The position numbers were made by a program, and so were the translations under genes. Shown here in pieces: positions 1-30,021 of a stretch of 64,000 nt of DNA. The first letter of the stretch is position 1. Each line of letters opens with the position of its first letter. The notes beneath the pieces were generated by a model that saw only the letters and a list, made by a program, of their open reading frames with translations, did not search any database and had not been told where the DNA came from. Source of the stretch: an uncultured Myxococcales bacterium (GTDB lineage Bacteria; Myxococcota_A; Polyangia; Palsa-1104; JAEUJZ01); NCBI GenBank assembly GCA_964460115.1, contig CAYWPR010000001.1, forward strand, positions 120,829 to 184,828. The letters are read 5' to 3'.

Positions 1-1097
1 ACCGGCAGCGTGCAGCCGACCTTGGCGTCAACGTCTCGGAAGTGGCGACGACTTTGCGGGCCCTAGTCGCCGGCGAAGTCGCGGGAAACTTTGAAGACAA
101 AAACGCCCGCACTTATGACATTCGAGTTCGCCTGCCTAACTCGGGTCGAGCGTCTAAAAAAGACATCGCACGGCTTTTTGTGCCCGGCGCGACGCGCCCC
201 GATGGCACCCGCAACTTGGTCGCCGTGGATCAGGTGGCCGACCTTTTGGCCGGCGTCGGCCCGTCCAAAATCAATCGCATCGATCTATCGCGTGAGGTTC
301 GCATCACCGGCGGCATTGAAGGTCGGCCGCTCGGTGACGTCAGCACCGACATCAAACGCGGCGTCGACAAACTTGAGATGCCCGCCGGCTACAGCGTGGA
401 CATGGGCGGTCAAACCAAGGATCTGAAAGAAACGGTTGGCTACGTTCTAGAGACGCTGCTTTTGGCCATCGTTTTCATCTACTTGGTGCTGGCCTCGCAG
501 TTTGAAAGTTTTCTGCAGCCCTTGGCCATCATGCTGTCGCTGCCGCTGTCGATGATCGGCGTCTTTTTGGCGATGCTCGCGACGCGCGGCAATATGAACA
601 TCATGAGCATGATCGGCGTCATCATGCTTATGGGCCTTGTGACCAAAAACGCCATCTTGCTCATCGACAACGCCAACCAGCGCCGGGCCGAAGGGATGAG
701 CCGCGCCGACGCGCTGATTACCGCCGGCGAAATTCGTCTGCGACCCATCGTCATGACCACTTTGGCCATGGTCTTTGGCATGTTGCCGCTCGGCATGGCC
801 CTGGGCGAGGGATCGGAATTTCGCTCGCCCATGGCCCGCGCGGTCATCGGAGGACTCATCAGCTCGACGCTTTTGACCCTGGTCGTGGTGCCGGTGGTAT
901 ACACCTACCTCGACGGGCTGGGGCACTTCATCGTGCGAGTCATCGGGGGCAGCAAACCGGAGAATCATGCGGCTGAAAATGCTGCGCCCGCAGCTTCTGA
1001 AGCCTCGGCGCCAACGCCTGCACTGACTGCGGCGCACCACTCTGGAGCCCAGGTCCCGTCTCTAGTCCCGCCGAGCTCAGAGCTCAATTCGCCGTAA
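1..1097 (+). CDS. RND (HAE1/AcrB-CzcA family) efflux transporter permease, C-terminal fragment; 5' end lies outside the window
   Basis: The translation has the typical AcrB C-terminal TM bundle (LLAIVFIYLVLASQFESFLQPLAIMLSLPLS...LMGLVTKNAILLIDNANQRR...IVMTTLAMVFGMLPL). The ORF runs open from the window edge in the frame of ORF 42..1097. Confidence 0.9.
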   Translation, partial: RQRAADLGVNVSEVATTLRALVAGEVAGNFEDKNARTYDIRVRLPNSGRASKKDIARLFVPGATRPDGTRNLVAVDQVADLLAGVGPSKINRIDLSREVRITGGIEGRPLGDVSTDIKRGVDKLEMPAGYSVDMGGQTKDLKETVGYVLETLLLAIVFIYLVLASQFESFLQPLAIMLSLPLSMIGVFLAMLATRGNMNIMSMIGVIMLMGLVTKNAILLIDNANQRRAEGMSRADALITAGEIRLRPIVMTTLAMVFGMLPLGMALGEGSEFRSPMARAVIGGLISSTLLTLVVVPVVYTYLDGLGHFIVRVIGGSKPENHAAENAAPAASEASAPTPALTAAHHSGAQVPSLVPPSSELNSP

Positions 1098-1782
1098 TCT
1101 GCATCTTGAAGCGGCCCGGCCCGGCTTTGGCACGAATCAGCAACTGATAATTGCCGGGCTGCGGCCGCACCAAATCAAACTGCAACGCATGCGGCGAATC
1201 TTTGCCCGATTGAAAGCTGAGCCCGGGCGAAAGCTCATAGTTAAAGGTGTCGCGCCCAATCATCGGGTGTGCCCCTTCATCGACCTGCAAAAATAGCAGG
1301 GTGAAGTTTGTCACTCCGCTGGCCAGCGTGAAATACCCATCGATATCGCCGTTTGGCTGTAGCAAAAAAGTGCCAAAGCCCATCGATATCGTGTTGTAGG
1401 CGATTTGCGAAATATCCGCCGTCGTAATTTTCAAATGGTCCACATCACCGCTGGAATCGTAGGCGGTCAAAACCACCTGACCATCTAAATGCGCCAGCAG
1501 TCTGTATAAGCCGTTGCCCGCATCCTGCACTTCCAGCACGTCCGGCTGATCGCTGCGCACAAGCAAGGGCACATTGTTGCTCGAGCGGCTGGCGCGAACA
1601 TCGACAAGGCCATCTACCGCGAAAAGCCGCTTTAGATCACAGCCGCCTATATCCGAAAGCGCGCCCCCGCAATTGCTGACGTTAAATACCGCTTTGCCCA
1701 AATCTCCGGTATTCGCCGAGCTGCCGCAACCGCCTGACACGGCAGCCACTACCGCCAAAATTGCCAGCCCCCACCGTCGCAA
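1084..1782 (-). CDS. hypothetical lipoprotein with a TTG start; the long ORF 1084..2013 is trimmed because its 5' part overlaps a tRNA gene
   Basis: Lipoprotein signal peptide MRRWGLAILAVVAAVSGGCGSS sits directly after an in-frame TTG. The upstream 230 nt of the ORF are occupied by tRNA-Thr. No recognisable domain. Confidence 0.45.
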   Translation of the reverse strand: MRRWGLAILAVVAAVSGGCGSSANTGDLGKAVFNVSNCGGALSDIGGCDLKRLFAVDGLVDVRASRSSNNVPLLVRSDQPDVLEVQDAGNGLYRLLAHLDGQVVLTAYDSSGDVDHLKITTADISQIAYNTISMGFGTFLLQPNGDIDGYFTLASGVTNFTLLFLQVDEGAHPMIGRDTFNYELSPGLSFQSGKDSPHALQFDLVRPQPGNYQLLIRAKAGPGRFKMQITAN

Positions 1783-1796
1783 ACTGCAAAAACTTG

Positions 1797-1868
1797 AGCC
1801 ACTGCTGGGACTTGAACCCAGGACCTGCGGTTTACGAAACCGCTGCTCTACCGCTGAGCTACAGTGGC
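1797..1868 (-). tRNA. tRNA-Thr (anticodon CGT)
   Basis: The reverse complement reads GCCACTGTAGCTCAGCGGTAGAGCAGCGGTTTCGTAAACCGCAGGTCCTGGGTTCAAGTCCCAGCAGTGGCT. It has a 7-bp acceptor stem, a D-loop AGCTCAGCGGTAGAGC, anticodon loop TTCGTAA and T-loop GGTTCAAGTCC. Confidence 0.9.
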
Positions 1869-1924
1869 AAAACATGCGGCAGTCTAGTCGGTCTGCCCGG
1901 GTAAGAGCAAGCCCCAAAACAGCA

Positions 1925-2818
1925 TTAGAGAAGGGGCGCAAGGCCGACGAGTTGCCAGATTTCGGCGGCGCTGTGACCGGCTTTTCGCAAGGAGGATAAA
2001 GTCGGCGCGCCATGCCGCTTGGCCAGACGAACGCCGTCCGGCGTGGTTAGCAAACGATGATGTGCATATTCGGGCGTGCCATATCCAAACACGGCCTGAA
2101 GCAGACGATGGATGTGCGTGGCGTAAAAAAGATCTTCGCCGCGCGTCACCAGGTTGACTCCTTGCAGGTGGTCATCGACCGTGACCGCCAAATGATAACT
2201 GGTGCGCACTTCTTTGCGGCCAAGGACCACATCGCCCAGCAGAAGCGGTTGCAAGAAGACTTGGCCATGACCGTGATCGAAAAAGCTCAGCGGTCCGCGG
2301 TTTGGCGCAACTCGCTCTACATAATTCAAAGCCTGCTGTACATCCAAACGCAGCGCATACCCATGACCGGCGGCTATGCGCTCGGCGCGCTCGGCGGCAC
2401 TGCGCCGTCTACAAGTCCCTGGATAAATCGCCCCCAGCTCGGCAGGAAGGCCGCCCAAAGGCAGATCGTGCGGGGCGCCTTGCGCAGCGGCCACCTCGGC
2501 CGCGATTTCCGCGCGTGTACAAAAGCAGGGATAAAGCAGCCCCAGCGCCGAAAGTTTTTCTAGGTGCGCCGCGTAAACATCCAAGTGTTCGCTTTGCCAG
2601 CGCACCTCACCGTCCCATTGCAGCCCCAAAAAGCGCAGATCGTCAAACAGGGCCAGCGCAAATTCGCGCCGGCAACGGGTTTGGTCGATGTCTTCCAGGC
2701 GCAAAAGAAAGCGGCCCCCGGCCTTTCGCGCCGCCTCAAATCCGCACCGCGCCGAGTAGGCGTGGCCCAGATGCAAAAGGCCCGTTGGGGAAGGAGCGAA
2801 ACGTGTGACGACCGTCAC
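1925..2818 (-). CDS. gluQ: glutamyl-Q tRNA(Asp) synthetase (truncated GluRS paralog)
   Basis: HIGH motif FAPSPTGLLHLGHA; about 300 aa with class I GluRS catalytic core only and no anticodon-binding domain. Confidence 0.85.
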   Translation of the reverse strand: MTVVTRFAPSPTGLLHLGHAYSARCGFEAARKAGGRFLLRLEDIDQTRCRREFALALFDDLRFLGLQWDGEVRWQSEHLDVYAAHLEKLSALGLLYPCFCTRAEIAAEVAAAQGAPHDLPLGGLPAELGAIYPGTCRRRSAAERAERIAAGHGYALRLDVQQALNYVERVAPNRGPLSFFDHGHGQVFLQPLLLGDVVLGRKEVRTSYHLAVTVDDHLQGVNLVTRGEDLFYATHIHRLLQAVFGYGTPEYAHHRLLTTPDGVRLAKRHGAPTLSSLRKAGHSAAEIWQLVGLAPLL

Positions 2819-2836
2819 GCTTGTTGGCTCAGGAAT

Positions 2837-4135
2837 TTAGACGGCTTTGCTTGCGCGCTCTTCGCTTGGGTCGGTAGAGCGTTCATCGCCGGCCTTGGGC
2901 TTCAGACGATCGCGGCCGCTAACCCGGCGTACCACCGCACCGACCAGTGTTCCGCCGATTCCGCCGGTCACAAGCGACAGAAATAGCGAATCCAGCGCCG
3001 GCGCGACCAGCCGGTTGGCGGTGGCGTTTTCCGAGAAGTGCCAAGCAAACACAAGCGTCGCCGCCGAGGCCATAATGAGGTGCGTCTTATTCTTGGCATC
3101 GCCGATTTTCGCCTCGACGAAAATCATCGCCAACACGACGAGGATGCCAGTTACAAGAAACCACAGCGGATTTAAGCTTTGAGGATGGACGGCCACGTGC
3201 AGACCGCTTTGCAAGAGCTCATCGACCCCTTCGGTGCTCACCGATAATTCGTGGCCGCGCAGGTTGTTTGGCAGGCGGTGTTCGATTTGGCTGTTTTGCT
3301 GTGTCCAGTGCGTGCTGCCGCGCCGAGTGCGCATTTGGTTCGTCTTGACGCTGAACTCTCCGACTAGCTCATGGCTTTGTCCGCCATCGGCAGCGATCGT
3401 CAGCGCATAATCGACTTTGCGATCGCCGCCTGCTTCGGGGCGCAGGCTGCCGCTGACTGTGACATCGAACGGACCGGCGGCATTTTCACCGATCGGCATC
3501 TTCAGCGACTTGCTTTGCTCGGTCAAAACCGCCTCTGCCAAAACCTTGCGCGGCACCGCTTTGCGCAGCGTTGGATATCCCACCGATGCAGCCCAGACGA
3601 TGGCCAGCGCCGCAAACAGCGTACGGCCGTTTTTGCTCTCAATTAAATCGTAGGCAGAGCCAACCGTGCTGTAGATGGCAAACGCCAGAAGCCCGCCCGC
3701 CAAAACCAAGCCGACCATCCCCTCGCGCAAATAGTCCATCTTGTAGCCAATGACGCCGACGCCAAGGACGACAATGAAAGTGACTTGGCTAAGCCAGCTT
3801 TCCCAGTGCTCATCCATAAACCGCCTATAGGCAGATGGAGGCGGGCCTTTTTTGTCGTTTGTCTCAGAGGATGCGCGCGCTGGCGTACGGCTGCTTTTGC
3901 CGCCATCGCGCGTCGTATGTCGCCGGGTGGGCTTATAGCCATCGGCTTCGCCCTCTGCGCCATTGTTTCGGGTGGAAGTTTCGCCGCCGCCGCGGTCTAG
4001 TTCATCGTTATCTGCTGGTGCCACGAAAAGCCTCTCTTGCACAAAAGTCGCCGGGAAAATATCGTGCTCTCCCGCCCCATGCAAGAATAGCTGTGGCTGA
4101 GGCGCAATCGGGGCAATAAACAAGCGGCTGGCCAC
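2837..4135 (-). CDS. hypothetical integral membrane protein; N-terminal ~100 aa are low-complexity, alternative start near 3814
   Basis: Several predicted TM helices (FIVVLGVGVIGY, LVLAGGLLAFAIY, LWFLVTGILVVLAMIF). No recognisable family. The stop lies 19 nt upstream of the gluQ start, implying an operon. Confidence 0.5.
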   Translation of the reverse strand: MASRLFIAPIAPQPQLFLHGAGEHDIFPATFVQERLFVAPADNDELDRGGGETSTRNNGAEGEADGYKPTRRHTTRDGGKSSRTPARASSETNDKKGPPPSAYRRFMDEHWESWLSQVTFIVVLGVGVIGYKMDYLREGMVGLVLAGGLLAFAIYSTVGSAYDLIESKNGRTLFAALAIVWAASVGYPTLRKAVPRKVLAEAVLTEQSKSLKMPIGENAAGPFDVTVSGSLRPEAGGDRKVDYALTIAADGGQSHELVGEFSVKTNQMRTRRGSTHWTQQNSQIEHRLPNNLRGHELSVSTEGVDELLQSGLHVAVHPQSLNPLWFLVTGILVVLAMIFVEAKIGDAKNKTHLIMASAATLVFAWHFSENATANRLVAPALDSLFLSLVTGGIGGTLVGAVVRRVSGRDRLKPKAGDERSTDPSEERASKAV

Positions 4136-4158
4136 TTACCCTTTAGACTAGGTTAACG

Positions 4159-5301
4159 ATGAAGTCAGCGTCTTTTCGCCGTTTCATAGGGCGGCTTTTA
4201 CCCATTGCCGTCGCGATTGCCGCACTTTTATATGCCATCCATCGCACCGATCTGGACAAAACCTGGCAGCATTTGCGGCAGGCCTCGCTAGGCTGGCTGC
4301 TTTTGGTCTCGGCCGGCATGACGCTTTTGAACTGCGCCGCCGACACCTTCGCCATGTACCATGTCTTTGCCGGATTCGGACTGCGGCTGCGCTTTTTTGA
4401 CCTGTACACCATCCGCGCCGCGACCTACACGCTGGCGGTCATCCACTATCACGCCGGGCAGCTTGGCATCATCGGCTTTCTTTACCGAGTTGCGCGCGTG
4501 CCCTTGTCGCGGGCCAGCGCCTATATTCTTTTTATTATCGGCATCTGGGTGGCCCTGCTTGTGATCTTTGCCACCGGAGGCGCGCTGCTTGGCGGCCCCA
4601 AAGGACGAGCGGTGTTGCCTTGGCTGACGCCGTTTGCGCTGGGGCTTGTCGTATATGCCTTGGTTTTGCGCTTTCCGCCGCGCTTTTTGCGCGTGCCGCC
4701 CGTTGCGATTGCCGGCAGTGCGAAAGATTCGCTTTTGACCAATCTATGGCAGCGCGTGATTCGGCTGATCAGCAACTTGTGGGAGCCGCTGCACACCGCC
4801 GGCCTGTCCGGGCATTTGCGGGCGCTCCTCGTTCGGCTGCCGCACCTGGCAGTCCTTTTGATTTGGCATTTTATCGCCCTGCGCTGCTTTCATATCAAGG
4901 TGCCCTTTTACCTGGCCATGCTGTATCTGCCGGTAGTATTTGCCGTCGGAGCGCTGCCGATCAGCATTTTTGGCCTGGGCACCACCCAGATGGTGGCGCC
5001 TTACTATTTCGCGGATTTTGCCGGCTCGGGCCCTAGCGGCAACGCGGCAGCTTTTGCCTACAGCTTGTCGATGACCGCGATTTCCACGGTCAGTAACCTT
5101 GTCATGGGATTTTTGTTTCTACGCCGCGGCGCGCGGCTTGGTCTAAGCACCACGCCCGAACAAACGGCCAAGATGGAAGCTCAGCTTACAGCCGAAGCGC
5201 AGGCGGCTTCTGCTCCGCCGACGATTTCCGCCGAGGAAAACAGCGCATCCTTAGGTTCGGTGCTATACCCGAATTCGGAGGATCGGCTTATCCTTCACTG
5301 A
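4159..5301 (+). CDS. flippase-like / lysylphosphatidylglycerol-synthase-TM-region (UPF0104) family membrane protein
   Basis: Eight or so TM helices. The N-terminal pattern RLLPIAVAIAALLYAIHRTDLDKTWQHLRQASLGWLLLVSAGMTLLNCAADTFAMYHVF is typical of PF03706-like proteins. Confidence 0.5.
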   Translation: MKSASFRRFIGRLLPIAVAIAALLYAIHRTDLDKTWQHLRQASLGWLLLVSAGMTLLNCAADTFAMYHVFAGFGLRLRFFDLYTIRAATYTLAVIHYHAGQLGIIGFLYRVARVPLSRASAYILFIIGIWVALLVIFATGGALLGGPKGRAVLPWLTPFALGLVVYALVLRFPPRFLRVPPVAIAGSAKDSLLTNLWQRVIRLISNLWEPLHTAGLSGHLRALLVRLPHLAVLLIWHFIALRCFHIKVPFYLAMLYLPVVFAVGALPISIFGLGTTQMVAPYYFADFAGSGPSGNAAAFAYSLSMTAISTVSNLVMGFLFLRRGARLGLSTTPEQTAKMEAQLTAEAQAASAPPTISAEENSASLGSVLYPNSEDRLILH

Positions 5302-5308
5302 AACGCGT

Positions 5309-6271
5309 ATGCTTCCTGCGCTAACACTTCTAGCGTTGTGCTCGCTTCCCAAGCTGCTTTTGTACCCTGACGGCCCCGTGGAAAACGGCGGCGGAACGGT
5401 CAATCGCGCGCCTCCTCCGGTGGTTTTGGTCAAAAGCGCCGGAGTGCGCGCGGTGCAAGAAGTCGCCGACGCCTTCAGCGATGGCTGCCGAGTTCACGTG
5501 CAGCAGATTTATATAGGCGAAGGACCGACCGAGATTGCGCGCGCGCGTGAGATCGTCCAGTCCGCGCGCGTGCTTGTCGCGGTGGGCCAGCCGGCCATCG
5601 AACTGATGATTGGCGTGCGCGCGCACATCGTCTATGCGCTGGCCCCCGATCCGCCCCCAGGCCTGATTGGCACCAACAACAGCGCCCCGCCTTTACAGGT
5701 CTTTAAGGCGCTTTTGTCTCTGCGTCCGCACACGCGACGAATTGCCGCCATTTCTAGCGAACGGGGCGCGCATCGGCTGGTCCAAGCGCGGGCCGCGGCG
5801 CGCAGCTTGGGCCTGGAGCTTGTCGATCTGCCGGCCGACGACAGCCGTGCCGCAATTCGCGCGCTGCGCGCACTTTTTGTACCGATGCCCGATGAGCCCG
5901 CTGGAAAGACCGCTGGCTCTCCAGTCGACGCGCTGTGGCTGGGCGCCGATCCGCAGCTTGTCGATACGCAAGTGTTGCAATTTGTTCTGCAGATGCAGAT
6001 TCAGTGGCAAGTGCCGGTGGTGGCAGCCACCCGCCAACAAGTCAGCTTCGGAGCGCTTCTAACCGTCGATTGGCCGCTAGAAGCCGTCGGACGCAACCTG
6101 GCTTGGCAAGTCAATCAGCTACTTGATGATCCCGAACACATTGCAGATTTGGCCCGCGATCATCCCATGGGTACGCCCGAGACCGTCATCAACGCCCAGG
6201 CGGCCCGGCGTTTGGGCATTTCGGTCGAGGCGCTGCGCCCGCTTCCCCCCTGGAAGGTGATCGAGCGATGA
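5309..6271 (+). CDS. periplasmic ABC_sub_bind-like (PF04392-type) solute-binding protein associated with a sensor kinase
   Basis: Signal peptide present. Periplasmic-binding-protein-like fold with no ABC permease or ATPase genes nearby. A 4-nt ATGA overlap with the downstream histidine kinase suggests translational coupling. Confidence 0.5.
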   Translation: MLPALTLLALCSLPKLLLYPDGPVENGGGTVNRAPPPVVLVKSAGVRAVQEVADAFSDGCRVHVQQIYIGEGPTEIARAREIVQSARVLVAVGQPAIELMIGVRAHIVYALAPDPPPGLIGTNNSAPPLQVFKALLSLRPHTRRIAAISSERGAHRLVQARAAARSLGLELVDLPADDSRAAIRALRALFVPMPDEPAGKTAGSPVDALWLGADPQLVDTQVLQFVLQMQIQWQVPVVAATRQQVSFGALLTVDWPLEAVGRNLAWQVNQLLDDPEHIADLARDHPMGTPETVINAQAARRLGISVEALRPLPPWKVIER

Positions 6272-9114
6272 ACCCGGCCGACCCGGCAGCAGAATCTGCA
6301 GGTGCCGCGTCTACATCTTCGCCAATCTCTCAAGAAGAACCGACCACGCCCGCGGCCTCAGCGCTTTCTGACAGCACACCGATCGATCCCGTAGCGCCCT
6401 GCGAAATCCCGGTCCCCGAAGAAAGCACCTTAAAACTCGCAACCATTTCGCGAGCAGAGGCAAATGCCGCCGCGTCCCTGAGCACGGCGGCCGCCGAACT
6501 GGCCACAGCCGCCACGACCCAGCCAAGGACCACGCCCGGCCTAGAAGGCGACAACTTATCGATACGCGAGACCCTGCCGCTGGCCCATCCGCAAAGCGTG
6601 GTCGTCAAACCGGCCGACACTTCTGATCTGAGCAAAGCCGAGGAAACGACCGAGATCCTCGGGCTTGAGCAAAGCGGCGAAATCAGCGGTTGGGGCAATC
6701 TGCTGATGCGGCAGCGCTCCAGTTTCTTTCGGCAGGTATTTTTGTGGCTTTTGGCCATCTCGCTGCTGATGTCGGTGGGCTCGGGCGCTATCTATTACAG
6801 TCGGCAGCTTGCCTTCATTGAAGAAGACGGGCAGCAGCGGGCCGAGCTTTTGCTGGGTTATCTGGCGACGCAATCGCAGCTTGGTGCCTTTGCCGGTGAC
6901 AAAGTACTGCTGGAACATCCGGTGCGCCGGGTGATCGATCAAAAAGATGTCGTCTTTGTGGCCGTCTACGATCTTTCCGGAAAGGAACTTATCAAGTCGA
7001 GCGGCCGGATCGGTCAAGCGCCGCCGGATCCGCCGGCTGGCTTGCTTGGTGAAATGCTTCGCGCCACGCGACGGGATCCGCAGATCAAACAGAAGAACAA
7101 AAACGATATCTTTTTTCAAAACGTCGCCGCCAATCACAACCACGCGCTTATCAACGAAGAATGGAACTGTCTGGATTTGTATGCGCCCATCGTCATCAGC
7201 GAACGCGGCGGACCGGGCGTGGCGGCATTCGTTTCGCCAAGCGATCGACTGACCCATGAACGCGTCGTAGGTGTGGCGCGCGTCGGCCTGTCGCTGGAAA
7301 CCGCCAATGAGCGGCTGCGCGACGTATTGCGCTGGGGGGTGGGCCTGGGGCTGCTTTTGCTGGCCATGGGGGCAACCGCCGCCTACTTTATCGCCGGCCG
7401 CATCAGCGTCCCGATTTTGGAACTTGTGCGCGGCGCCGACGAAATTCGCAACGGCAATTTGCATCCACGCATCAATGTCTCGCGCACCGACGAACTGGGC
7501 ATGCTTGCCGAATCCTTTCTGCGCATGGCCGAGCGCCTGCGTGAAACCATGTCGGCGCTGTCGCGTCTGAACCGCGATCTGGAAAGCGAAGTCAAACGGC
7601 GCACGCGGCAAATTCGCCTGGCCTACGCGTTTACCTCTGTTTTGAATTCGCCCATCGATCGCAGCGACGAAGCCATGGATGCTGCTGATTTGACGGTGAT
7701 GCTCGATCAGGCCTTGGCGGCGCTCGTCGAGGCCACCGGCACCAAAGGCGGCGGCGTCTTTTTGGCCGATGAAAGTATCAGCGACGGCGAGCTTTTGGTC
7801 CGCGCCGCTTATGGCGTCTCGACGCATACCTTGGGTCCAACGCCGCCCCTCAAAGACTTTTTAGAGCAGTGCGTCAATAACGCCGATGGCATGGTGCCGA
7901 CGCTGCATGAAGCCGTACAGGTCGTCGGCCGGCGCCTTTTGGTGCCTTTGGTCTTTCGCAACCATCCTCTAGGCCTTTTGGTGCTGGTGCTTTGCGAGGA
8001 TGAGCCGCCCGAGCAAACGCTTCTAGAGTTCGTACGCCAGGCCGCAGCGCAGATGGCCATCGCGGTCAGCAATGCTCGCGCTTACGCCCGTCTGTCGCAA
8101 CTGGCCACGGAGCTGCGTCTGCGTACCGAAACCTTGGCGGCCCAGCGCGATCAGGTCAAAGCCCAGCGCGATCAGCTTGAAACGCAGCGCAATCAGCTTG
8201 AAGAGCAGCGCAATCAATTGGCGGCGCAGGGCATGCAATTGCGCATTCAGCGCAATCAGCTTCGCGAAGTGAATCGTCTGAAGTCGGAATTTTTGGCCAA
8301 TGTCTCACACGAGCTGCGCACGCCGCTAAACGCCATCATGGGCTACTCCGAGCTTATCGATGACGAGATCTACGGTCCCATTTCGGTCGATGCGCACGAG
8401 GCGGTCACCGGCGTCCTGGCTTCCTCGGCCAATCTGCTGCGCCTTATCAATCAGATTCTGGATCTGTCGCGAATCGAGGCCGGCAAGATGGAATTCTTCT
8501 TTGAAGAGATCGACATCTCGACGGTCTGTAGCGCGGTCATTCGCGAAGCCGAGGCGATGGGTCGCGACCGGCCCTATCGCGTAGAACTTACAAGCCCGCC
8601 GGGGCTGCGCATCGTCACCGATGCCGTGAAACTGCAGCAAATTCTGACCAACCTCATCGCCAACGCCATCAAGTTCACGGCCCAGGGATCGGTCTATGTC
8701 GAGGCCAAAGAACTTCTAGGCGGCGATGTGCAGATTTCGGTACACGACACCGGAATCGGTATTAAAAGCGAGAACTTGCAGCTTATTTTCGAGGAATTTC
8801 GCCAAGTGGACGGCAGCTCGACGCGGCGATTTGGCGGGACGGGCCTGGGATTGGCCATCGCCCGCCGCCTGGCCGAAATGCTCGGGGCGACGATCTCTGT
8901 CGAAAGCACATTTGGCGAGGGCTCGGTCTTTAGTGTGCATTTGCCGCGCATTCCACCGCCGCAGCCGGCTGGCCGCTCGCGACCGCGCGACGCCGACAGC
9001 AACCCATATGTCAGTATGTTCTCGGATCCTGAGATACCGCGCCTTTTGCAAACCAACCTACTTGCCGGACCCGGGCCGAAATTGCCGCCCGATCGGTCGC
9101 AAGACGAAACATAG
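6268..9114 (+). CDS. sensor histidine kinase: N-terminal disordered cytoplasmic region, 2 TM helices with periplasmic sensor, HAMP, GAF, coiled-coil S-helix, HisKA, HATPase_c
   Basis: HAMP motif PILELVRGADEIRNGNLHPRINVSRTDELGMLAESF. H-box FLANVSHELRTPLNAI. G-boxes DTGIGI and GGTGLGLAI. Heptad repeats QRDQ/QRNQ immediately precede the H-box. Confidence 0.9.
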   Translation: MNPADPAAESAGAASTSSPISQEEPTTPAASALSDSTPIDPVAPCEIPVPEESTLKLATISRAEANAAASLSTAAAELATAATTQPRTTPGLEGDNLSIRETLPLAHPQSVVVKPADTSDLSKAEETTEILGLEQSGEISGWGNLLMRQRSSFFRQVFLWLLAISLLMSVGSGAIYYSRQLAFIEEDGQQRAELLLGYLATQSQLGAFAGDKVLLEHPVRRVIDQKDVVFVAVYDLSGKELIKSSGRIGQAPPDPPAGLLGEMLRATRRDPQIKQKNKNDIFFQNVAANHNHALINEEWNCLDLYAPIVISERGGPGVAAFVSPSDRLTHERVVGVARVGLSLETANERLRDVLRWGVGLGLLLLAMGATAAYFIAGRISVPILELVRGADEIRNGNLHPRINVSRTDELGMLAESFLRMAERLRETMSALSRLNRDLESEVKRRTRQIRLAYAFTSVLNSPIDRSDEAMDAADLTVMLDQALAALVEATGTKGGGVFLADESISDGELLVRAAYGVSTHTLGPTPPLKDFLEQCVNNADGMVPTLHEAVQVVGRRLLVPLVFRNHPLGLLVLVLCEDEPPEQTLLEFVRQAAAQMAIAVSNARAYARLSQLATELRLRTETLAAQRDQVKAQRDQLETQRNQLEEQRNQLAAQGMQLRIQRNQLREVNRLKSEFLANVSHELRTPLNAIMGYSELIDDEIYGPISVDAHEAVTGVLASSANLLRLINQILDLSRIEAGKMEFFFEEIDISTVCSAVIREAEAMGRDRPYRVELTSPPGLRIVTDAVKLQQILTNLIANAIKFTAQGSVYVEAKELLGGDVQISVHDTGIGIKSENLQLIFEEFRQVDGSSTRRFGGTGLGLAIARRLAEMLGATISVESTFGEGSVFSVHLPRIPPPQPAGRSRPRDADSNPYVSMFSDPEIPRLLQTNLLAGPGPKLPPDRSQDET
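8140..8265 (+). repeat. six in-frame 21-bp tandem repeats (gcScagcgcRatcagSttgaa-like) encoding heptads AQRDQVK/AQRDQLE/TQRNQLE/EQRNQLA/AQGMQLR/IQRNQLR
   Basis: Direct reading of the sequence. The repeats lie inside the HK CDS, in the coiled-coil linker between GAF and DHp. Confidence 0.85.
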
Positions 9115-9133
9115 GATTTGATCGAGTGCTCAT

Positions 9134-9526
9134 GTGACGACCAGCCTTACTCCGAATGACCGTACCGTGCTTCTCGTCGATGACGACGTTCACAACCAGC
9201 GAATTTTTGATCGGGTGCTGCGCCACTCGGGATTTCATGTGCGCATGGCCGCCACCGGCGATGAGGCCCTGCGTGAGGCCCGCGCCCATCTGCCCGACCT
9301 CATCCTGATGGACCTATCGATTCCGGTGATTGACGGATGGGAATGCTCGCGCCAGCTTAAGGCCGATCCCAAGACCCAGCACATCATCATTTTGGCGCTA
9401 ACCGCCCATGCCATGCGCGGCGATCAGGAACGCGCCATTGCCGCAGGCTGCGATGGCTACCTGGCCAAACCAATCTCACCCAAAAGACTGGTCGAAGAGG
9501 TCAAACAGCGTCTACAAATTAGCTAA
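9134..9526 (+). CDS. stand-alone response regulator receiver (CheY-like) protein
   Basis: Receiver signature VLLVDDDV...LILMDLSIP...ALTAHAMRGDQERAIAAGCDGYLAKP, with conserved Asp and Lys. No output domain. Confidence 0.9.
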   Translation: MTTSLTPNDRTVLLVDDDVHNQRIFDRVLRHSGFHVRMAATGDEALREARAHLPDLILMDLSIPVIDGWECSRQLKADPKTQHIIILALTAHAMRGDQERAIAAGCDGYLAKPISPKRLVEEVKQRLQIS

Positions 9527-9575
9527 TTCGCGTCCCAAATGCGCTGCTTGCATGCGGATCCGCCCATCCGCTCGG

Positions 9576-9649
9576 TGACCGCGGCGCGATTCGAACGCGC
9601 GACCTACTGTTTAGGAAACAGTTGCTCTATCCGGCTGAGCTACGCAGTC
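9576..9649 (-). tRNA. tRNA-Arg (anticodon CCT)
   Basis: The reverse complement reads GACTGCGTAGCTCAGCCGGATAGAGCAACTGTTTCCTAAACAGTAGGTCGCGCGTTCGAATCGCGCCGCGGTCA, with cloverleaf anticodon loop TTCCTAA. ORF 9539..9766 overlapping it is spurious. Confidence 0.85.
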
Positions 9650-9789
9650 CTAGTCCCAAGCAAATCCTGCAGACGGAGCGTCTGCATCTATGACTACTTA
9701 GGCTGTCTTACAGAACGTCGTTCAAATAACACAGGATGCCAGGCTCTGGCAACGTATGCCGCTTGATTCTGCAGAGGTGCTGCGCCAAG

Positions 9790-10977
<1,188 letters not shown>

Positions 10978-11027
10978 GCGCTGTATCGAAGCACTTTCAC
11001 GAAATCTCAAACGGATAGGAACAAGCG

Positions 11028-11420
11028 ATGGCAAAGGACTACCCGGACGATCTGCGTTACACCAAAGACCACGAATGGGTGCGCATCAATGAAACGACCA
11101 AGCGCGCGCTCGTCGGCATCACCAAGTTTGCCGTCGACCAGCTTGGCGATATCACCATGGTCGATCTGCCCAAGGAAGGCGAGTCTTTTCGTCGCGAGCA
11201 GGTGCTAGCCACCGTGGAATCGGTCAAAGCCGTGTCGGACATCTATGCTCCGCTTTCCGGCAAAGTGCTGAAGGTCAACGATCCGGTGCGCGACACTCCA
11301 GAGACGCTGAACGATGACTGCTACGACGAAGGCTGGCTGGTCGAATTGGAGCTTTCCAGCTTGGCCGAAAGCAAAGAATTGATGACCGACGTCGAATACG
11401 AGCAGCACCTTCGCGAATAA
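11028..11420 (+). CDS. gcvH: glycine cleavage system H protein (lipoyl carrier)
   Basis: YTKDHEWVR...ESVKAVSDIYAPLSGKV, with the lipoyl-lysine in the SVKA motif. Confidence 0.9.
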   Translation: MAKDYPDDLRYTKDHEWVRINETTKRALVGITKFAVDQLGDITMVDLPKEGESFRREQVLATVESVKAVSDIYAPLSGKVLKVNDPVRDTPETLNDDCYDEGWLVELELSSLAESKELMTDVEYEQHLRE

Positions 11421-11428
11421 GGACTTCG

Positions 11429-12871
11429 ATGCGCTACATCCCGCATACTGATGCAGACGTCGCAGAGATGCTGCGCGTCATCGGCGCTCAATCGGTTGAC
11501 GCGCTGTTTGCACACATTCCTGCGTCCCTGCGCCCTAGTCGGCCGCTCAACATTGCCGCGCTGGACGAAGCGGCGCTGCTTGCGCATTTGGGCCAAATCG
11601 GTGCTCATAGCGTTCCGGCAGTCGGCGATACGCCTCGCGAATTGGCGGCGCTGTCGTTTTTGGGGGCGGGGCTTGTGCCGCACCACATTCCGACGGCGGT
11701 CGATGCGATGCTATGGCGCGCCGAATGGTATACTTCCTACACGCCCTATCAGCCCGAGGTGGCGCAGGGAACCCTGCAAGCCATTTTTGAATATCAAACC
11801 CTGGTCGCCGAGCTCTTCGGCTCGCCGCCCAGCGCCGGAGCAGCGACTTATATCAGCAACGCCAGCATGTATGACGGCGCGTCGTCGGCTGCCGAAGGTG
11901 TGCTGATGGCCAGGCGGCTAACCGGGCGTTCCGCCGTGCTGTATTGCGGCGCGCTGCATCCGCAGTATGCCGACACCATTAATTGTTATCTGTCGGGGCT
12001 GCGCCGCCCGAATGAAAAGCTCGTGCATCAAGTCGGACTTAGTCCGGCGGGTGACGGGCGCATCGATATGGACGGGCTGGATCGCACGCTCAAAGAGCTT
12101 GGCAATAGCCTGGCCTGCGTGGTCGTGCAGTCGCCCAACTACTTGGGCGTCATTGAAGATCTAAACGCCATCGCCGAGCGAGTGCATGCCGCCGGCGCAC
12201 TTTTGGTGGCCGTGTGCACCGAGCCTTTGGCCATGGGACTGTTGCAGCCGCCCGGAACGCTTGGAGCCGACATCATCTGCGGCGAAGGCATGGGCCTGGC
12301 GCTGCCTCCGACGCTAGGCGGGCCGGGAGTAGGCCTTTTTGCCGCACGCGCCGAATACGCGCGCCAAATGCCTGGACGGCTGGTGGGTGAAACCGTCGAT
12401 CAAAGCGGAAGGCGCGGCTACGTGCTGACATTGGCCACGCGTGAGCAGCACATCCGCCGCGAAAAGGCGACTTCGAACATTTGCACGAACCATGGCCTTA
12501 TCGCGCTGGCATTTACAATTCATCTATCGCTTCTAGGCCGCAGTGGTTTTGTGCGCTTGGCCGAGCTGAATTTGGCCAAAGCCGAATACGCTCGGCAGAA
12601 GCTGTCGCGGCTGAGCGGTTTTCGCTTGGCGGTCAGCGGACCGACTTTCAACGAATTCGCGCTGCGGCTGCGCGGCTCGATAAGTGCAACCACGGTGGTG
12701 GAACGGCTGCGCGAACAAAACATTTTGTGCGGCGTGCCGCTTGGCCAAGCCGGCTTTCGGCTTTCGACCCTGGCCGACGCCGAGCAAGTGCTGCTTATCG
12801 CCGTCAGCGAGCGCCACAAGCGCGAAGACATCGATCGTCTGGTCACCGCTCTTGATGAGGTATGTCCATGA
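11429..12871 (+). CDS. gcvPA: glycine dehydrogenase (decarboxylating) subunit 1
   Basis: N-terminal MRYIPHTDADVAEMLRVIGAQSVDALF and about 480 aa. The split P-protein arrangement is typical. Confidence 0.9.
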   Translation: MRYIPHTDADVAEMLRVIGAQSVDALFAHIPASLRPSRPLNIAALDEAALLAHLGQIGAHSVPAVGDTPRELAALSFLGAGLVPHHIPTAVDAMLWRAEWYTSYTPYQPEVAQGTLQAIFEYQTLVAELFGSPPSAGAATYISNASMYDGASSAAEGVLMARRLTGRSAVLYCGALHPQYADTINCYLSGLRRPNEKLVHQVGLSPAGDGRIDMDGLDRTLKELGNSLACVVVQSPNYLGVIEDLNAIAERVHAAGALLVAVCTEPLAMGLLQPPGTLGADIICGEGMGLALPPTLGGPGVGLFAARAEYARQMPGRLVGETVDQSGRRGYVLTLATREQHIRREKATSNICTNHGLIALAFTIHLSLLGRSGFVRLAELNLAKAEYARQKLSRLSGFRLAVSGPTFNEFALRLRGSISATTVVERLREQNILCGVPLGQAGFRLSTLADAEQVLLIAVSERHKREDIDRLVTALDEVCP

Positions 12872-14370
12872 GCGCCGGTCAAGGCCCCATTTCCACGCGC
12901 CATCCGCTACACCAAGCGGCGTCGATTTTCGAAATCGGCGCCCCCGGACGCAACGGCGCGTCTTTGCCTGAATGCGATGTTCCAGCGGCCGATCCCGCGG
13001 CGCTTTATGGATCGCTGTTTCGTCAAAAGCCTGCGGCTTTGCCCGAGGTGTCCGAGGTCGATGTGACGCGGCATTTTACTCGTCTGTCGCGTTGGAATTA
13101 CGCCATCGACATCGGCATGTATCCGCTGGGCTCGTGCACGATGAAATACAATCCCAAGGTCAACGAACGGGTGGCCCGTTTGCCCGGCTTTGCGGGTGTG
13201 CATCCGGCCCAGCCGATTTCGACGCTACAAGGCGCCTTGGAGCTCATGCACAAGCTGGAAGGCGTCTTGTGCGAGATCTCAGGATTTTCGCGAGTGGCAC
13301 TGCAGACCGCAGCCGGTGCGCATGGCGAGCTTTGCGGCCTGATGATGATTCGCGCTTATCATCAAAGTCGCGGGCGGCATCCCAAAAAAGTGCTGATTCC
13401 CGATTCGGCGCACGGCACCAATCCCGCTTCAGCCAGCCTGAATCAGTTTGAGACGGTACCGCTGAAGACGGGTGTGGACGGCCTTTTGTCGGCGGACAGC
13501 GTCCGGGCAGCGATTGCTGCGCATCCCGACGACATCGCCGGATTGATGATCACCAATCCCTCTACCTTGGGCATTTTTGAAGAGCAAGTTTGCGACATCA
13601 CCGCCGCGGTTCACGCCGCCGGTGGCCTGGTTTATATGGATGGCGCTAACTTCAACGCGCTGCTCGGCAAGCTGCGCCCCGGCGATACCGGCGTTGACTG
13701 CATGCACTTCAACCTGCACAAAACCTTTACTACGCCCCATGGCGGCGGCGGTCCGGGTTGTGGTCCGGTTGGAGTAACCGCGGCGCTGGTCCCATTTTTG
13801 CCAACGCCGACGGTGGAAAAACACGGAGAGAGCTACACCCTAGACTGGAATCGCCCGCAATCGATTGGCCGGCTGCGCAGCTTCTTTGGCAACTTCGGCA
13901 TGATGGTGCGCGCTTATACGTACATTCGCGAGATGGGCGGCGCCGGGCTAACTCGAGCCACCGAGATGGCCGTGCTAAACGCCTGCTATCTGCGCGCGCT
14001 GATTGCGCACGAATATCCGCCGTGCTCGGAACGCCCGTCGATGCATGAAGTCGTGGTCTCGGACAAGAAACTGAAAAAAGAAACCGGCGCCCAAACCTTG
14101 GACATTGCCAAACGGCTGATCGACTACGGCTTTCATCCGCCGACGATCTATTTTCCGCTGGTCGTGCCCGGGGCGATGATGATCGAACCGACCGAGACGG
14201 AAGCCAAAGAAACCATCGACGAGTTCGCGCAAGCGATGCTCGCCATCGCCGAGGAAGCGAAAAAAACTCCAGAGCTTTTGAAAGCCGCGCCGCAACAGAC
14301 CGCCATGCGCCGTTTGGACGAAACTCGCGCCGCGCGCCAGCCCAAGTTGCGCTGGCTGCCCACGCCATAA
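12862..14370 (+). CDS. gcvPB: glycine dehydrogenase (decarboxylating) subunit 2, PLP-binding
   Basis: CMHFNLHKTFTTPHGGGGPG contains the PLP-lysine motif. A 10-nt overlap with gcvPA. Confidence 0.9.
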   Translation: MSMSAGQGPISTRHPLHQAASIFEIGAPGRNGASLPECDVPAADPAALYGSLFRQKPAALPEVSEVDVTRHFTRLSRWNYAIDIGMYPLGSCTMKYNPKVNERVARLPGFAGVHPAQPISTLQGALELMHKLEGVLCEISGFSRVALQTAAGAHGELCGLMMIRAYHQSRGRHPKKVLIPDSAHGTNPASASLNQFETVPLKTGVDGLLSADSVRAAIAAHPDDIAGLMITNPSTLGIFEEQVCDITAAVHAAGGLVYMDGANFNALLGKLRPGDTGVDCMHFNLHKTFTTPHGGGGPGCGPVGVTAALVPFLPTPTVEKHGESYTLDWNRPQSIGRLRSFFGNFGMMVRAYTYIREMGGAGLTRATEMAVLNACYLRALIAHEYPPCSERPSMHEVVVSDKKLKKETGAQTLDIAKRLIDYGFHPPTIYFPLVVPGAMMIEPTETEAKETIDEFAQAMLAIAEEAKKTPELLKAAPQQTAMRRLDETRAARQPKLRWLPTP

Positions 14371-23111: not shown

Positions 23112-23570
23112 ATGGCTATCGAACTGACTTTGGGCATGATTAAGCCCGACGCTGTAGAAAAGGGTCACCAGTGGCACATTCTTGCCGACATCGCCTCAAG
23201 CGGCTTAAAGCCGGTGGCGGTGCGCCTCACCCGCATGAGCAAGGAAATGGCCAAGGTTTTTTACATCGTTCACAAAGAACGACCCTTTTACGATGGACTG
23301 ACGAACTTTATGTCTTCGGGTCCGATTGTCGCCATGGTCCTTGAAGGGGAAGACGCCATTCACAAGTATCGCGAGATTATGGGAGCGACCGATGTGAAAA
23401 AGGCGGCGCCCGGCACGCTGCGCGCCAAGTTTGGCGAGAGCATTGAACGCAATGCGGTACACGGCAGCGATGCGCCGGAAACCGCCCGTCGAGAAATCAG
23501 CTTCTTCTTTACGATTCAGGAGCTGACCCCGCTAGGCGTCATCATCGGCGAGGCAGAGAAGAAGGCGTAG
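23112..23570 (+). CDS. ndk: nucleoside diphosphate kinase
   Basis: TLGMIKPDAV...NAVHGSD contains the active-site His. About 152 aa. Confidence 0.95.
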   Translation: MAIELTLGMIKPDAVEKGHQWHILADIASSGLKPVAVRLTRMSKEMAKVFYIVHKERPFYDGLTNFMSSGPIVAMVLEGEDAIHKYREIMGATDVKKAAPGTLRAKFGESIERNAVHGSDAPETARREISFFFTIQELTPLGVIIGEAEKKA

Positions 23571-25104
23571 CCTCTGATTCTGCCGGCGCATGGGCCGGCA
23601 AAATCAGCTCGAAGGTCGTGCCGACTGGGCTCGTGTGTACATCCACGCTGCCGCCATGGTCGTGCACGATCTCGCGCACGAAGGAAAGTCCAAGGCCCGT
23701 GCCCTGCGCCCGCGTGGTGAAAAAGGGAATCCAGATCTTCGGCAAGGCCTCGGCGCCAATTCCCGGACCGCTGTCGCGCACAACAAACCGCACCGCGGCC
23801 CTTTCAGAAGAAAGCCGCGCCGCCTCGGCGACGAGCTCGACGCGACGGGGACGCAAATCATCGGCAGGCAACGCGACCAAGGCCTGCACTGCATTATGCG
23901 CCAGATTTAGCAGCACCCGACGCAGTTGGGTGGCATCGGCGTGCACGAATAGTGCGGTATCCGGACGCGGACATTCTACGATTACCTCCGCCGGCGCCTT
24001 GGCACTGGCGCTGTCGCGTACCTCGCAAAGCACGTCAAATGCCGACACCGCCGTCAATATCGGCCGCGGCCGGCGCGCGTAGTCCAAAAAATCATTGACC
24101 ACCGCCTGAAGGTGCCAAAGCTCTTTACGAATGCGCTGTACGTACGATTGCGCCGTGGCAATGTTGACAGGGCTTGGTTCTAGCGCTCCGTCGGCTGGCG
24201 CGCCGGGCGACTGTAGCTCTTCGGCTAGCAGTCCGGCATAAAGCTCCATGCCGCCAAGCGGATTTCGCACTTCGTGAGCAATGCCGGAAAGCATCATCTG
24301 CATGCGTTCATCGCGAGCCCGCAGCGCCTGACGCATCGTCTCAAGCCCTTCGCCAAGTTCGGCAACCTCATCGCCACCTTTGCGCACGAGCACGGGATGG
24401 TCGAAAACGCCACTGCCGATAAGCCGAGCGCTTTCCAGCAAGCGCCGCAGCGGCCGAGTCAGCCCCAGCCCCAAAAGCACCGCCAAAAGCACCATGCCAA
24501 GCCCCCCCCCACCGCCGACCCACAACAATGTTTTGCGCAGCAAAAGCAGGTCGGCATAAATCGCCGCGTTGCCATCCACTCCGACCGCAAATCGCACGCC
24601 TTCTTGACCGCCAGCAGCAGCAATCGGCGCATAGCCGGATTTGTACAATTTTCCGTCGCGTCCGCGAAACAGTAGCGAAGAAACCGGCTGCCCGGCCTGG
24701 CCGGTCTGCAAAGCCGGAAATACCTGACGCAGCTCTGTGCGATTGCTGTCTAAGCCATAGTAGCGGGTGCCAATCGGCTGCTCATCGGTGTCTACTCGCG
24801 CCGTCAAGTCCGCAGCAAACAAGTAAACCCGCGCCACCCCGCTGGCATCGCGTATCTCGATGAGCCGACGGCGCAGATTGCGGTAGGTGCGACTTTGTTC
24901 ATCACCCGGCGAAAGCAGCGCCACGCTTTCTTCGGCAATTTGGGTCGCGGCAACCGCGGCGATGCCGGACAGCCGACGCCCAAGCTCGGCCTCTAGCGCA
25001 CGCGCCGCCGCATAATGGCCCAGCACGGCAAAGCCGGCAAAGGTAAGCACCGTCGGTGTCAAAATGCCCAAAAGCAATTTGCTAAGCAGCGAAATCCGCG
25101 CCAT
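23542..25104 (-). CDS. sensor histidine kinase (2 TM helices, periplasmic sensor domain, HAMP, HisKA, HATPase_c)
   Basis: H-box GIAHEVRNPLGG. N-box LLNLAHNAVQA. G-boxes DSGPGI and GTGLGLS. Confidence 0.9.
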   Translation of the reverse strand: MARISLLSKLLLGILTPTVLTFAGFAVLGHYAAARALEAELGRRLSGIAAVAATQIAEESVALLSPGDEQSRTYRNLRRRLIEIRDASGVARVYLFAADLTARVDTDEQPIGTRYYGLDSNRTELRQVFPALQTGQAGQPVSSLLFRGRDGKLYKSGYAPIAAAGGQEGVRFAVGVDGNAAIYADLLLLRKTLLWVGGGGGLGMVLLAVLLGLGLTRPLRRLLESARLIGSGVFDHPVLVRKGGDEVAELGEGLETMRQALRARDERMQMMLSGIAHEVRNPLGGMELYAGLLAEELQSPGAPADGALEPSPVNIATAQSYVQRIRKELWHLQAVVNDFLDYARRPRPILTAVSAFDVLCEVRDSASAKAPAEVIVECPRPDTALFVHADATQLRRVLLNLAHNAVQALVALPADDLRPRRVELVAEAARLSSERAAVRFVVRDSGPGIGAEALPKIWIPFFTTRAQGTGLGLSFVREIVHDHGGSVDVHTSPVGTTFELILPAHAPAESEATPSSLPRR

Positions 25105-25206
25105 GGCGCCAGTATGGAGGATTCAAAAAAATACATCAGCACGCTGGCCTAACCCGTCGCTGACCATCGTGCAATTGGGCGGCTTTTCGTGATATCTTGA
25201 AACATT

Positions 25207-29969: not shown

Positions 29970-30021
29970 TGCAAGAACTTTACGAGGATCGAAGCATATT
30001 CGTCTATAATTCAAAATCAGT

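Follow-up and report, generated by a model that had tools for sequence, protein, structure and literature searches.

A candidate two-component sensor built around a PF04392-type periplasmic binding protein in an uncultured Myxococcales bacterium

In a stretch of DNA from an uncultured Myxococcales bacterium (contig CAYWPR010000001.1; the 64 kb analysed are called the window below), four co-directional genes encode, in this order, a flippase-like membrane protein (gene 1), a periplasmic binding protein of a type best known from ATP-binding cassette (ABC) transporters (gene 2), a transmembrane sensor histidine kinase (gene 3) and a single-domain response regulator (gene 4). The locus raises the question of what a binding protein of this type does directly ahead of a kinase. 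According to the original prediction, which was made from the letters of this DNA, the gene 2 product has no transporter partner and probably presents a ligand to the kinase. Our analysis favours this answer with somewhat better than even confidence: the module is probably a solute-binding-protein-dependent two-component sensor, in which the gene 2 product would act as the ligand-catching co-sensor of the kinase. The idea has gained support, as no ABC genes adjoin gene 2 in the annotated relatives or, by motif scan, in the window, the loci of its own clade are collinear (14 of 14), and a receptor gene follows the corresponding binding-protein gene in 32 of 32 distant loci of the same PF04392 subfamily.

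The assignment of gene 2 to PF04392 (ABC_sub_bind) holds in part. Taken alone, the sequence stays below the threshold, with 17.1 bits against a gathering cut-off of 25.9, and it reaches 22.7 bits with the TrpX model of NCBIfam, for which the cut-off is 390; the family profile and the predicted structure, however, place it with PF04392 structures. A word-indexed search of 5.8 billion proteins returned just 37 homologues, and many relatives at 50-63% identity carry a precomputed PF04392 match. Compared with the PDB, a family profile of 25 homologues matched 3LKV (4e-14), 3LFT (2e-13) and 6HNI (2.5e-10). For the AlphaFold model (mean predicted local distance difference test, pLDDT, of 83.8) the top five Foldseek matches are again the 3LKV, 3LFT and 6HNI structures, with E-values of 1e-14 to 4e-13 and TM-scores of 0.60-0.69, followed by type-I folds of the LacI/ribose-binding type. 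A two-lobed fold with a cleft is confidently predicted and is conserved in the family, and the protein begins with a hydrophobic N-terminus (residues 1-19). The ligands of the solved PF04392 proteins are L-Trp, L-Phe or L-Tyr, and these proteins work with ABC importers (PMC6816091, PMC9382623, PMC10443332). Gene 2 is only 14-18% identical to them, so their ligands are not transferable to it. A mapping of the specificity positions of VC_1101 (Ala-246 and Tyr-262; PMC6816091) onto gene 2 was dropped, because the numbering offset had to be guessed at this low identity.

Gene contexts were gathered by exact-protein look-ups and by scanning GTDB species representatives once with the alignment of the gene 2 family, and the window proteins were mapped onto them by tblastn. 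The closest relatives of the module are metagenome-assembled genomes (MAGs) of Polyangia/Myxococcales, in line with the taxonomic guess of the original prediction. Co-conservation of the arrangement among relatives had been named as a check of the prediction, and it is found for three of the genes: the genes for the binding protein, the kinase and the receiver follow one another in the same order in each Polyangia-type locus reaching far enough (L001, L002, L004, L005, L010, L011, L013, L016-L019, L021-L023). The ATG of the kinase gene overlaps the stop codon of gene 2, with a frame open into the first transmembrane segment (TM1), in 15 of the 18 loci examined, the window included. The exceptions are L002, where the overlap reads GTGA, and L017 (in-frame stop) and L023, both without overlap. 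Downstream of the receiver, no gene is conserved in the relatives. Across the 14 loci the mean pairwise divergence is 0.51 for gene 2, 0.44 for the sensor domain of the kinase, 0.30 for HAMP-GAF, 0.26 for the kinase core and 0.23 for the receiver. Gene 2 distances correlate best with those of the sensor domain (r = 0.93), and this correlation persists when the cytoplasmic parts are controlled for (partial Mantel r = 0.76, p = 1e-4), a pattern that fits a co-evolving contact between the two proteins.

The same pairing recurs far outside this clade. The GTDB scan yielded 32 further loci with a PF04392-like gene that is 21-33% identical to gene 2 and clears the Pfam cut-off at 59-89 bits. In each of them the next gene on the same strand encodes a transmembrane receptor, mostly overlapping or within about 100 nt, and a sensor-HAMP segment was detected in 28 of these 32 receptors. 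A receptor gene, and not a permease gene, thus lies directly downstream of the gene for the periplasmic binding protein (PBP) in all 46 related loci. The distant loci come from Acidobacteriota, Eisenbacteria, Elusimicrobiota, a Latescibacterota MAG and other Myxococcota, and the output of the receptor is that of a kinase or of a chemoreceptor. A highly conserved cluster of CheW, PBP, methyl-accepting chemotaxis protein (MCP) and a HEAT-repeat protein of about 790 aa occupies some 20 loci of Vicinamibacteria/Acidobacteriota (among them L025-L029, L031, L032, L034-L038, L040, L044, L047, L049, L052) and looks like an uncharacterised binding-protein-dependent chemoreceptor. PBP-MCP pairs occur in other Myxococcota and in two unclassified MAGs. 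Eisenbacteria have the order TonB-dependent receptor, PBP, hybrid kinase in L039, L042 and L045, and a PBP-kinase pair in L024. Elusimicrobiota and the Latescibacterota MAG have TonB-dependent receptor, PBP and transmembrane receptor, with a kinase core in L051 and L055, L051 having a receiver as well, and without a detected output domain in L048; also in this group, PBP-kinase pairs lack an upstream TonB receptor gene in L043, where that gene lies downstream, and in L054. The gene for the TonB-dependent outer-membrane receptor stands directly upstream of the PF04392-receptor pair in six loci (L039, L042, L045, L048, L051, L055), which suggests that a ligand imported across the outer membrane may there be handed first to the binding protein and next to the kinase.

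The candidate partner surface on the kinase is its periplasmic domain between TM1 (residues 156-177) and TM2 (356-377), both located by hydropathy. This domain (residues 178-355) has no Pfam match even at E = 10. Word-indexed searches with the region returned only 4 and 2 matches, mostly frameshifted fragments, and a full HMMER pass over 1.84 billion representatives recovered only 33 relatives. Nine of the ten relatives examined are kinases of the form TM-loop-TM-HAMP, a fused receiver is present in three of them (P0062, P0065, P0068), and a weak sCache_4 match was seen in relative P0058 and in the chemoreceptor of L029. By hhalign, the TM1-loop-TM2-HAMP part of the window clade aligned at 97-98% probability with PF04392-linked receptors of Elusimicrobiota (sCache_3_2), Vicinamibacteria and Eisenbacteria, the 97% alignment to the sCache_3_2-bearing receptor taking in the HAMP region. 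A model computed from a shallow alignment, with a confidence (pLDDT 57) that suits it for strand order and a weak fold hint, displays the order alpha-alpha-beta-beta-alpha-beta-beta-beta of PDC/single-Cache domains; its best Foldseek matches are the sensor domains of WalK, CdgS9/LapD, CitA, CusS and KinD. A PDC/single-Cache-type fold is the probable one for this domain.

Some of these matches would also suit a different role of gene 2. Its product could be a ligand-independent accessory subunit, permanently bound to the kinase and tuning its activity or stability in the style of YycH/YycI with WalK or LapG with LapD, and the PDC-like or the GAF domain would then be the real input. WalK, for which an integrative WalK-YycH model exists, and the LapD orthologue CdgS9 have PDC domains that bind a protein partner; the window kinase carries candidate ligand-binding domains of its own, and gene 2 is only 14-18% identical to the solved homologues that bind ligands. 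We nevertheless regard an accessory subunit as unlikely, given that a binding fold with a cleft is confidently predicted for gene 2 and conserved, and that in other phyla the pair comes directly after a TonB-dependent receptor gene, implying that an imported small molecule is handed on.

It is very unlikely that gene 2 encodes an ordinary ABC-transporter binding protein with its permease and ATPase elsewhere, next to the kinase gene through co-regulation or chance. PF04392 proteins of known function, TrpX and CD0873, do serve importers of aromatic amino acids (PMC6816091, PMC9382623, PMC10443332), and in Pseudomonas aeruginosa the products of adjacent sbp (solute-binding protein) and kinase genes were shown not to interact (PMC11113362). 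However, as the original prediction had it, gene 2 appears without an ABC partner: no ABC permease or ATPase gene is present in the annotated flanks of the relatives L001, L002 and L004, no open reading frame (ORF) in the window pairs a Walker A motif with an ABC signature, and no ABC component occurs among the Pfam-annotated neighbours checked in the distant loci. Instead of a permease, it is always a receptor that lies downstream (46 of 46 loci), start and stop codons overlap, and the partner stays a transmembrane receptor even though flanking genes and output domains differ among phyla.

Gene 1 is less firmly tied to the module. It scores 37 bits with PF03706, with a cut-off of 33.4, over profile positions 2-288 of 302; this family is the flippase domain of MprF. 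Hydropathy gives six to eight hydrophobic segments, as in a polytopic protein. The synthase domain of the MprF C-terminus is absent, since Pfam finds no second domain and the last approximately 60 residues are of low complexity. Orthologues of gene 1 (41-68% identity) lie upstream of gene 2 in 12 loci (L001, L004, L005, L006/7, L011-L017, L023). No homologue was found by tblastn within 8 kb of gene 2 in L018, L019, L021 and L022, where a gene for an MMPL protein or a PEGA-domain protein lies upstream in its place, and in L003 leuS (572-3232) separates a gene 1 fragment (2-511) from gene 2 with the three-gene core intact. The unit of four genes that had been proposed is thereby reduced: binding protein, kinase and receiver stand as its core, and gene 1 is missing or split off in these loci. 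The deepest branch (L004, L005, L006/7, L023) has an additional small gene, the fifth, between genes 1 and 2. Its product of 137-143 aa has a single N-terminal membrane anchor, no Pfam match even at E = 10 and no homologue in the window. In L006 successive genes overlap by 4 nt (2478-3470, 3467-3880, 3877-4746, 4743-). Judged by gene order, the ancestral operon probably comprised gene 1, the small gene, gene 2, kinase and receiver; on the same comparison the small gene is lost in the lineage of the window, gene 1 counts as an original but dispensable member that some lineages have lost or displaced, and the strict core is made up of three genes. The reading in which genes 1 and 2 form a pair for handling membrane lipids or envelope precursors (flippase-like protein and periplasmic acceptor), with the kinase and receiver regulating or monitoring it and the kinase sensing the envelope state directly, draws on the ancestral position of gene 1, on the 4-nt overlaps that link it to its neighbours in the deep branch (L006) and on the flippase domain, yet it is very improbable in view of the absence of gene 1 from the four Polyangia-type loci just named and from all 32 distant loci, the separation by leuS in L003 and the invariant pairing of binding protein and receptor.

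Several points weigh against a co-sensor role of gene 2. The transporter scan spans the 64-kb window, and the remainder of the genome could still hold ABC genes. The distant loci were retrieved by one peptide pattern of the gene 2 family, so that 32 of 32 describes a PF04392 subfamily and not the whole family. The model of the sensor domain, where docking is proposed, is of low confidence (pLDDT 57), and the correlated distances could come from a shared extracytoplasmic rate regime rather than from a co-evolving interface. Four or five related loci lack gene 1, and the role proposed for it is speculative. No credible candidate for a histidine phosphotransfer (Hpt) protein emerged from a crude motif scan of the window. 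Finally, according to a 2024 study, neighbouring sbp and kinase genes need not be functionally coupled (PMC11113362); the binding proteins in that work adjoin kinase genes in one species only, in contrast to the adjacency described here, which spans phyla and output types.

By domain models and key residues, kinase and receiver are intact in the H-box with His681, the catalytic domain, the acidic pocket and the conserved Asp, Thr and Lys. Between GAF and HisKA lies a tandem repeat of heptads (period 21, about 4 copies by Tandem Repeats Finder). The number of heptads is 1 in L023, 4 in L002, 6 in the window and most loci, and 7 in L004, indicating that the signalling helix varies in length by whole heptads. 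None of the four genes matches an NCBIfam equivalog. The kinase core and the receiver both have their best scores with hybrid kinases (BarA, TorS, HrmK, LuxQ, PRK15347), in each case far below the equivalog cut-offs. Pfam shows no domain besides Response_reg in gene 4, whose orthologues in relatives are 72-85% identical, and an Hpt domain in neither gene 3 nor gene 4. Encoded separately in the window, the receiver is fused to the kinase in P0062, P0065, P0068 and L039. The likeness to hybrid kinases and the relatives with a fused receiver favour a relay intermediate or a CheY-like effector over a transcription factor. The suggestion of a phosphorelay made from the missing effector domain has in this way been strengthened, and a phosphorelay-like mode of action is plausible.

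Taken together, a co-sensor role of gene 2 would imply the following chain. The gene 2 product would be exported to the periplasm, as its hydrophobic N-terminus suggests, and would bind a small ligand in the cleft that its PF04392-type fold forms with two lobes. The loaded protein is expected from comparative genomics to dock on the PDC-like kinase domain (residues 178-355), from where the signal would run through TM2, HAMP, GAF and the heptad-repeat signalling helix to His681. This residue would then give up its phosphoryl group to Asp60 in the 130-aa receiver. The latter is most likely a split-off hybrid-kinase receiver from which an unlinked Hpt protein or regulator is phosphorylated; or else it may act by CheY-like protein contact. 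The flippase-like protein, whose gene takes the place that the TonB-dependent receptor gene has in other phyla, may bring the ligand to the inner membrane or present it there. A bolder version, which we put forward as quite unlikely, is that gene 2 belongs to a receptor-dedicated clade of PF04392 proteins, which kinases and chemoreceptors in at least five phyla use as a portable co-receptor, that the flippase-like protein of Polyangia exposes a membrane-derived or lipid-linked molecule, and that the operon monitors the state of the envelope lipids and not an external nutrient.

The kinase has an unusual part, a disordered cytoplasmic segment of about 150 aa ahead of TM1. The segment, which had been pointed out before, is real by composition and is kept as a feature in the relatives, where it is about 10 aa long in L006, about 240 aa in L010 and about 125-170 aa in between, with a sequence that is mostly unalignable. 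In the relatives the frame is open from the gene 2 stop onward. A short motif, R[DE]TLP[LIM]A[RQH]P, is found in all crown-group relatives compared and in P0038, P0040, P0041 and P0042, and is absent from the deep branch (L004, L006, L023). Two further islands of the crown group lie nearer to TM1, an acidic E-T-x-E-x-P and an SGWG just before a membrane-proximal RQRSSFFRQVF. GC content by codon position gave no decision on whether the extension is translated. An alternative kinase start at Met147 was rejected, because the ATG overlapping the gene 2 stop and the open frame recur in divergent relatives. Since open frame and motifs persist across lineages that are 45-65% identical in gene 2, the extension is likely to be translated and functional. 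The disordered N-terminus with its RETLPLAxP motif is probably a cytoplasmic docking site.

Three further observations concern the N-terminal region of the kinase or its sensor domain. Tandem SNPSG[FV] repeats fill part of the extension in two loci (L020:1717-2233, L022:4751-5123), indicating that the N-terminal extension is quickly rebuilt. In L017 (8978-9407) a stop codon interrupts the kinase frame about 430 nt past the binding-protein gene, which points either to an error in the assembly or to an N-terminus that is truly shorter. The metagenomic protein P0043 (856 aa) carries the sensor domain at residues 644-823 with 56% identity and has no kinase core; an nSTAND1 NTPase (162-575) and an N-terminus that is TIR-like, by eye only, stand where the disordered extension would sit. 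P0043 thus looks like a fusion of a STAND NTPase with a transmembrane sensor.

Features of the locus and their coordinates are given in Table 1. The four ORFs with the predicted make-up, including a 948-aa HAMP-GAF kinase and a single-domain receiver, are present, Pfam confirms the domains of genes 1, 3 and 4, and an NCBI record for a contig of 252,884 bp carries identical sequences and starts for all four proteins. Gene 4 starts with GTG. Read directly, the junctions are TGA, 7 nt and ATG between genes 1 and 2, an ATGA stop/start overlap preceded by GGAAGG between genes 2 and 3, and TAG, 19 nt and GTG between genes 3 and 4. The common direction and the ATGA overlap that had been described are confirmed, and the gaps of 8 and 20 nt are corrected to 7 and 19 nt.

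Table 1. Coordinates of the module, its domains and adjoining features; positions refer to the window unless a locus is named.
Feature	Position	Strand	Basis
Gene 1, 380-aa polytopic membrane protein with MprF-type flippase-like domain (PF03706)	4159..5301	+	Pfam
Gene 2, secreted periplasmic binding protein of type I (320 aa), divergent member of PF04392 and proposed co-sensor	5309..6271	+	profile, AlphaFold, Foldseek
Gene 3, 948-aa transmembrane sensor histidine kinase	6268..9114	+	Pfam domains
Kinase residues 1-150, cytoplasmic low-complexity extension rich in A/S/T/P/E	6268..6717	+	composition
Kinase residues 100-108, conserved short motif RETLPLAHP	6565..6591	+	comparison with relatives
Kinase residues 178-355, periplasmic sensor domain between TM1 and TM2, proposed docking site for the gene 2 product	6799..7332	+	hydropathy, hhalign, model
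HAMP, kinase residues 374-426	7387..7545	+	Pfam 56.5 bits; profile matches to Af1503 HAMP structures
GAF, kinase residues 472-602, weak match	7681..8073	+	GAF 23.2 bits vs cut-off 22.4; GAF_2 28.5 vs 28.6
21-nt tandem repeat, QR[DN]QLxx heptads of the coiled-coil signalling helix between GAF and HisKA	8134..8241	+	Tandem Repeats Finder
Kinase core, HisKA 672-739 (H-box SHELRTP, His681) and HATPase_c 785-894	8281..8949	+	Pfam 68 and 100.7 bits
Gene 4, 130-aa single-domain response regulator; D16/D17, phospho-acceptor D60, T90, K112	9134..9526	+	Response_reg 94.3 bits
tRNA-Arg(CCT), downstream end of the operon	9574-9649	-	Rfam 67 bits and ARAGORN
Divergent 432-aa membrane protein with disordered N-terminus	2837-4135	-	conserved neighbour of gene 1 in close relatives
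Small gene between genes 1 and 2 of the deepest branch	L004:7553-7984; L006:3467-3880; L023:5810-6217		

With a divergent ORF of 432 aa upstream and a minus-strand tRNA-Arg downstream, the operon holds at most these four genes. Scans for promoters and terminators gave chance-level counts inside the operon (1, with 1.4 expected, and 12 against 7.4 +/- 3.0) and therefore speak neither for nor against co-transcription. Orthologues of the 432-aa protein, 55-60% identical, occupy the same divergent position in L001, L011, L012, L013 and L017; the protein has no Pfam match (even at E = 10) and no NCBIfam match, and its link to the module is unproven.

The window has some further features. Beyond the tRNA lies an unrelated glycine-cleavage operon (9650-14370) with gcvT (9736-10977), gcvH (11028-11420) and a two-subunit gcvP (11429-12871 and 12862-14370), and the short region upstream of it contains no glycine riboswitch at or above the Rfam gathering score. 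A tRNA-Thr(CGT) at 1796-1868 on the minus strand falls inside two long mechanical ORFs, 1084-2013 (-) and 1574-1999 (+), so that at least part of both is unlikely to be coding. Two more ORFs with a histidine-kinase H-box, HEVRNP, both unrelated to the module, are found on the minus strand at 23545-25122 and 28437-30524.

Kinases that are stimulated by solute-binding proteins (SBPs) and encoded beside an sbp gene are an established class (PMC8050422, PMC11113362). Signalling of this kind is thought to be widespread, yet only a handful of systems have been characterised, with other binding-protein families, and the known ligands of PF04392 proteins are only aromatic amino acids, determined on transporter components. 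A 2021 review of SBP-mediated signalling (PMC8050422) does not mention PF04392, and our literature searches on PF04392, COG2984 or ABC_sub_bind with sensors or kinases, and on PF03706, yielded no description of such an arrangement. The locus and its 46 related loci define a PF04392 subfamily that is invariably encoded next to a transmembrane receptor and not next to a permease. They provide a testable set of orphan binding-protein/receptor pairs, including the CheW-PBP-MCP-HEAT cluster of Vicinamibacteria, and give annotators a reason against labelling such proteins as transporter components. For the organism of the window, one predicted sensory pathway is identified.

Compared with characterised systems, the window module resembles LuxP-LuxQ, in which a transporter-less type-I periplasmic binding protein is likewise encoded beside a membrane kinase and the kinase core is of the hybrid type; a periplasmic kinase part of PAS/PDC type and phosphotransfer to a receiver without DNA-binding output are features of LuxP-LuxQ that the window module probably has too. 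LuxP, however, is a relative of the ribose-binding protein and not a PF04392 member, and in LuxQ the periplasmic PAS domains are in tandem, HAMP-GAF is missing and the receiver is fused. The window kinase reaches 196 bits with the LuxQ model, compared to a cut-off of 1200 bits, and is therefore not an orthologue; a crude motif scan found no LuxU-like Hpt gene nearby. TorT-TorS, ChvE-VirA and XylFII-LytS (PMC8050422) have in common with it a binding protein encoded beside the kinase; in these systems it is dedicated to signalling and modulates the kinase when loaded with ligand, as is proposed for the gene 2 product. Their binding proteins are of other families, and their sensor domains also differ, TorS being helical and LytS polytopic; the score with the TorS model, 207 bits against a cut-off of 676.5, covers the kinase core only. 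BarA/GacS shows the same succession of transmembrane segment, periplasmic domain, transmembrane segment, HAMP and HisKA/HATPase core, with a PDC domain of sCache_4 type in the periplasm where the window kinase has a probable one, and BarA gives the best score, 221 bits, against a cut-off of 890; unlike the window kinase, BarA has a fused receiver and Hpt, no GAF and no partner binding protein. TrpX/SP1069 (3LFT), VC_1101 (3LKV) and CD0873 (6HNI) resemble gene 2 in fold and by profile homology, whereas as ABC proteins of PF04392 they feed importers, and the invariant neighbour of gene 2 is a receptor and not a permease. From NCBIfam scores and domain content, the module is not a member of the LuxPQ or TorTS families. 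By analogy, its closest mechanistic models are LuxP-LuxQ and TorT-TorS, and it would not be a new kind of system but a known signalling design that is new in its use of a PF04392 binding protein.

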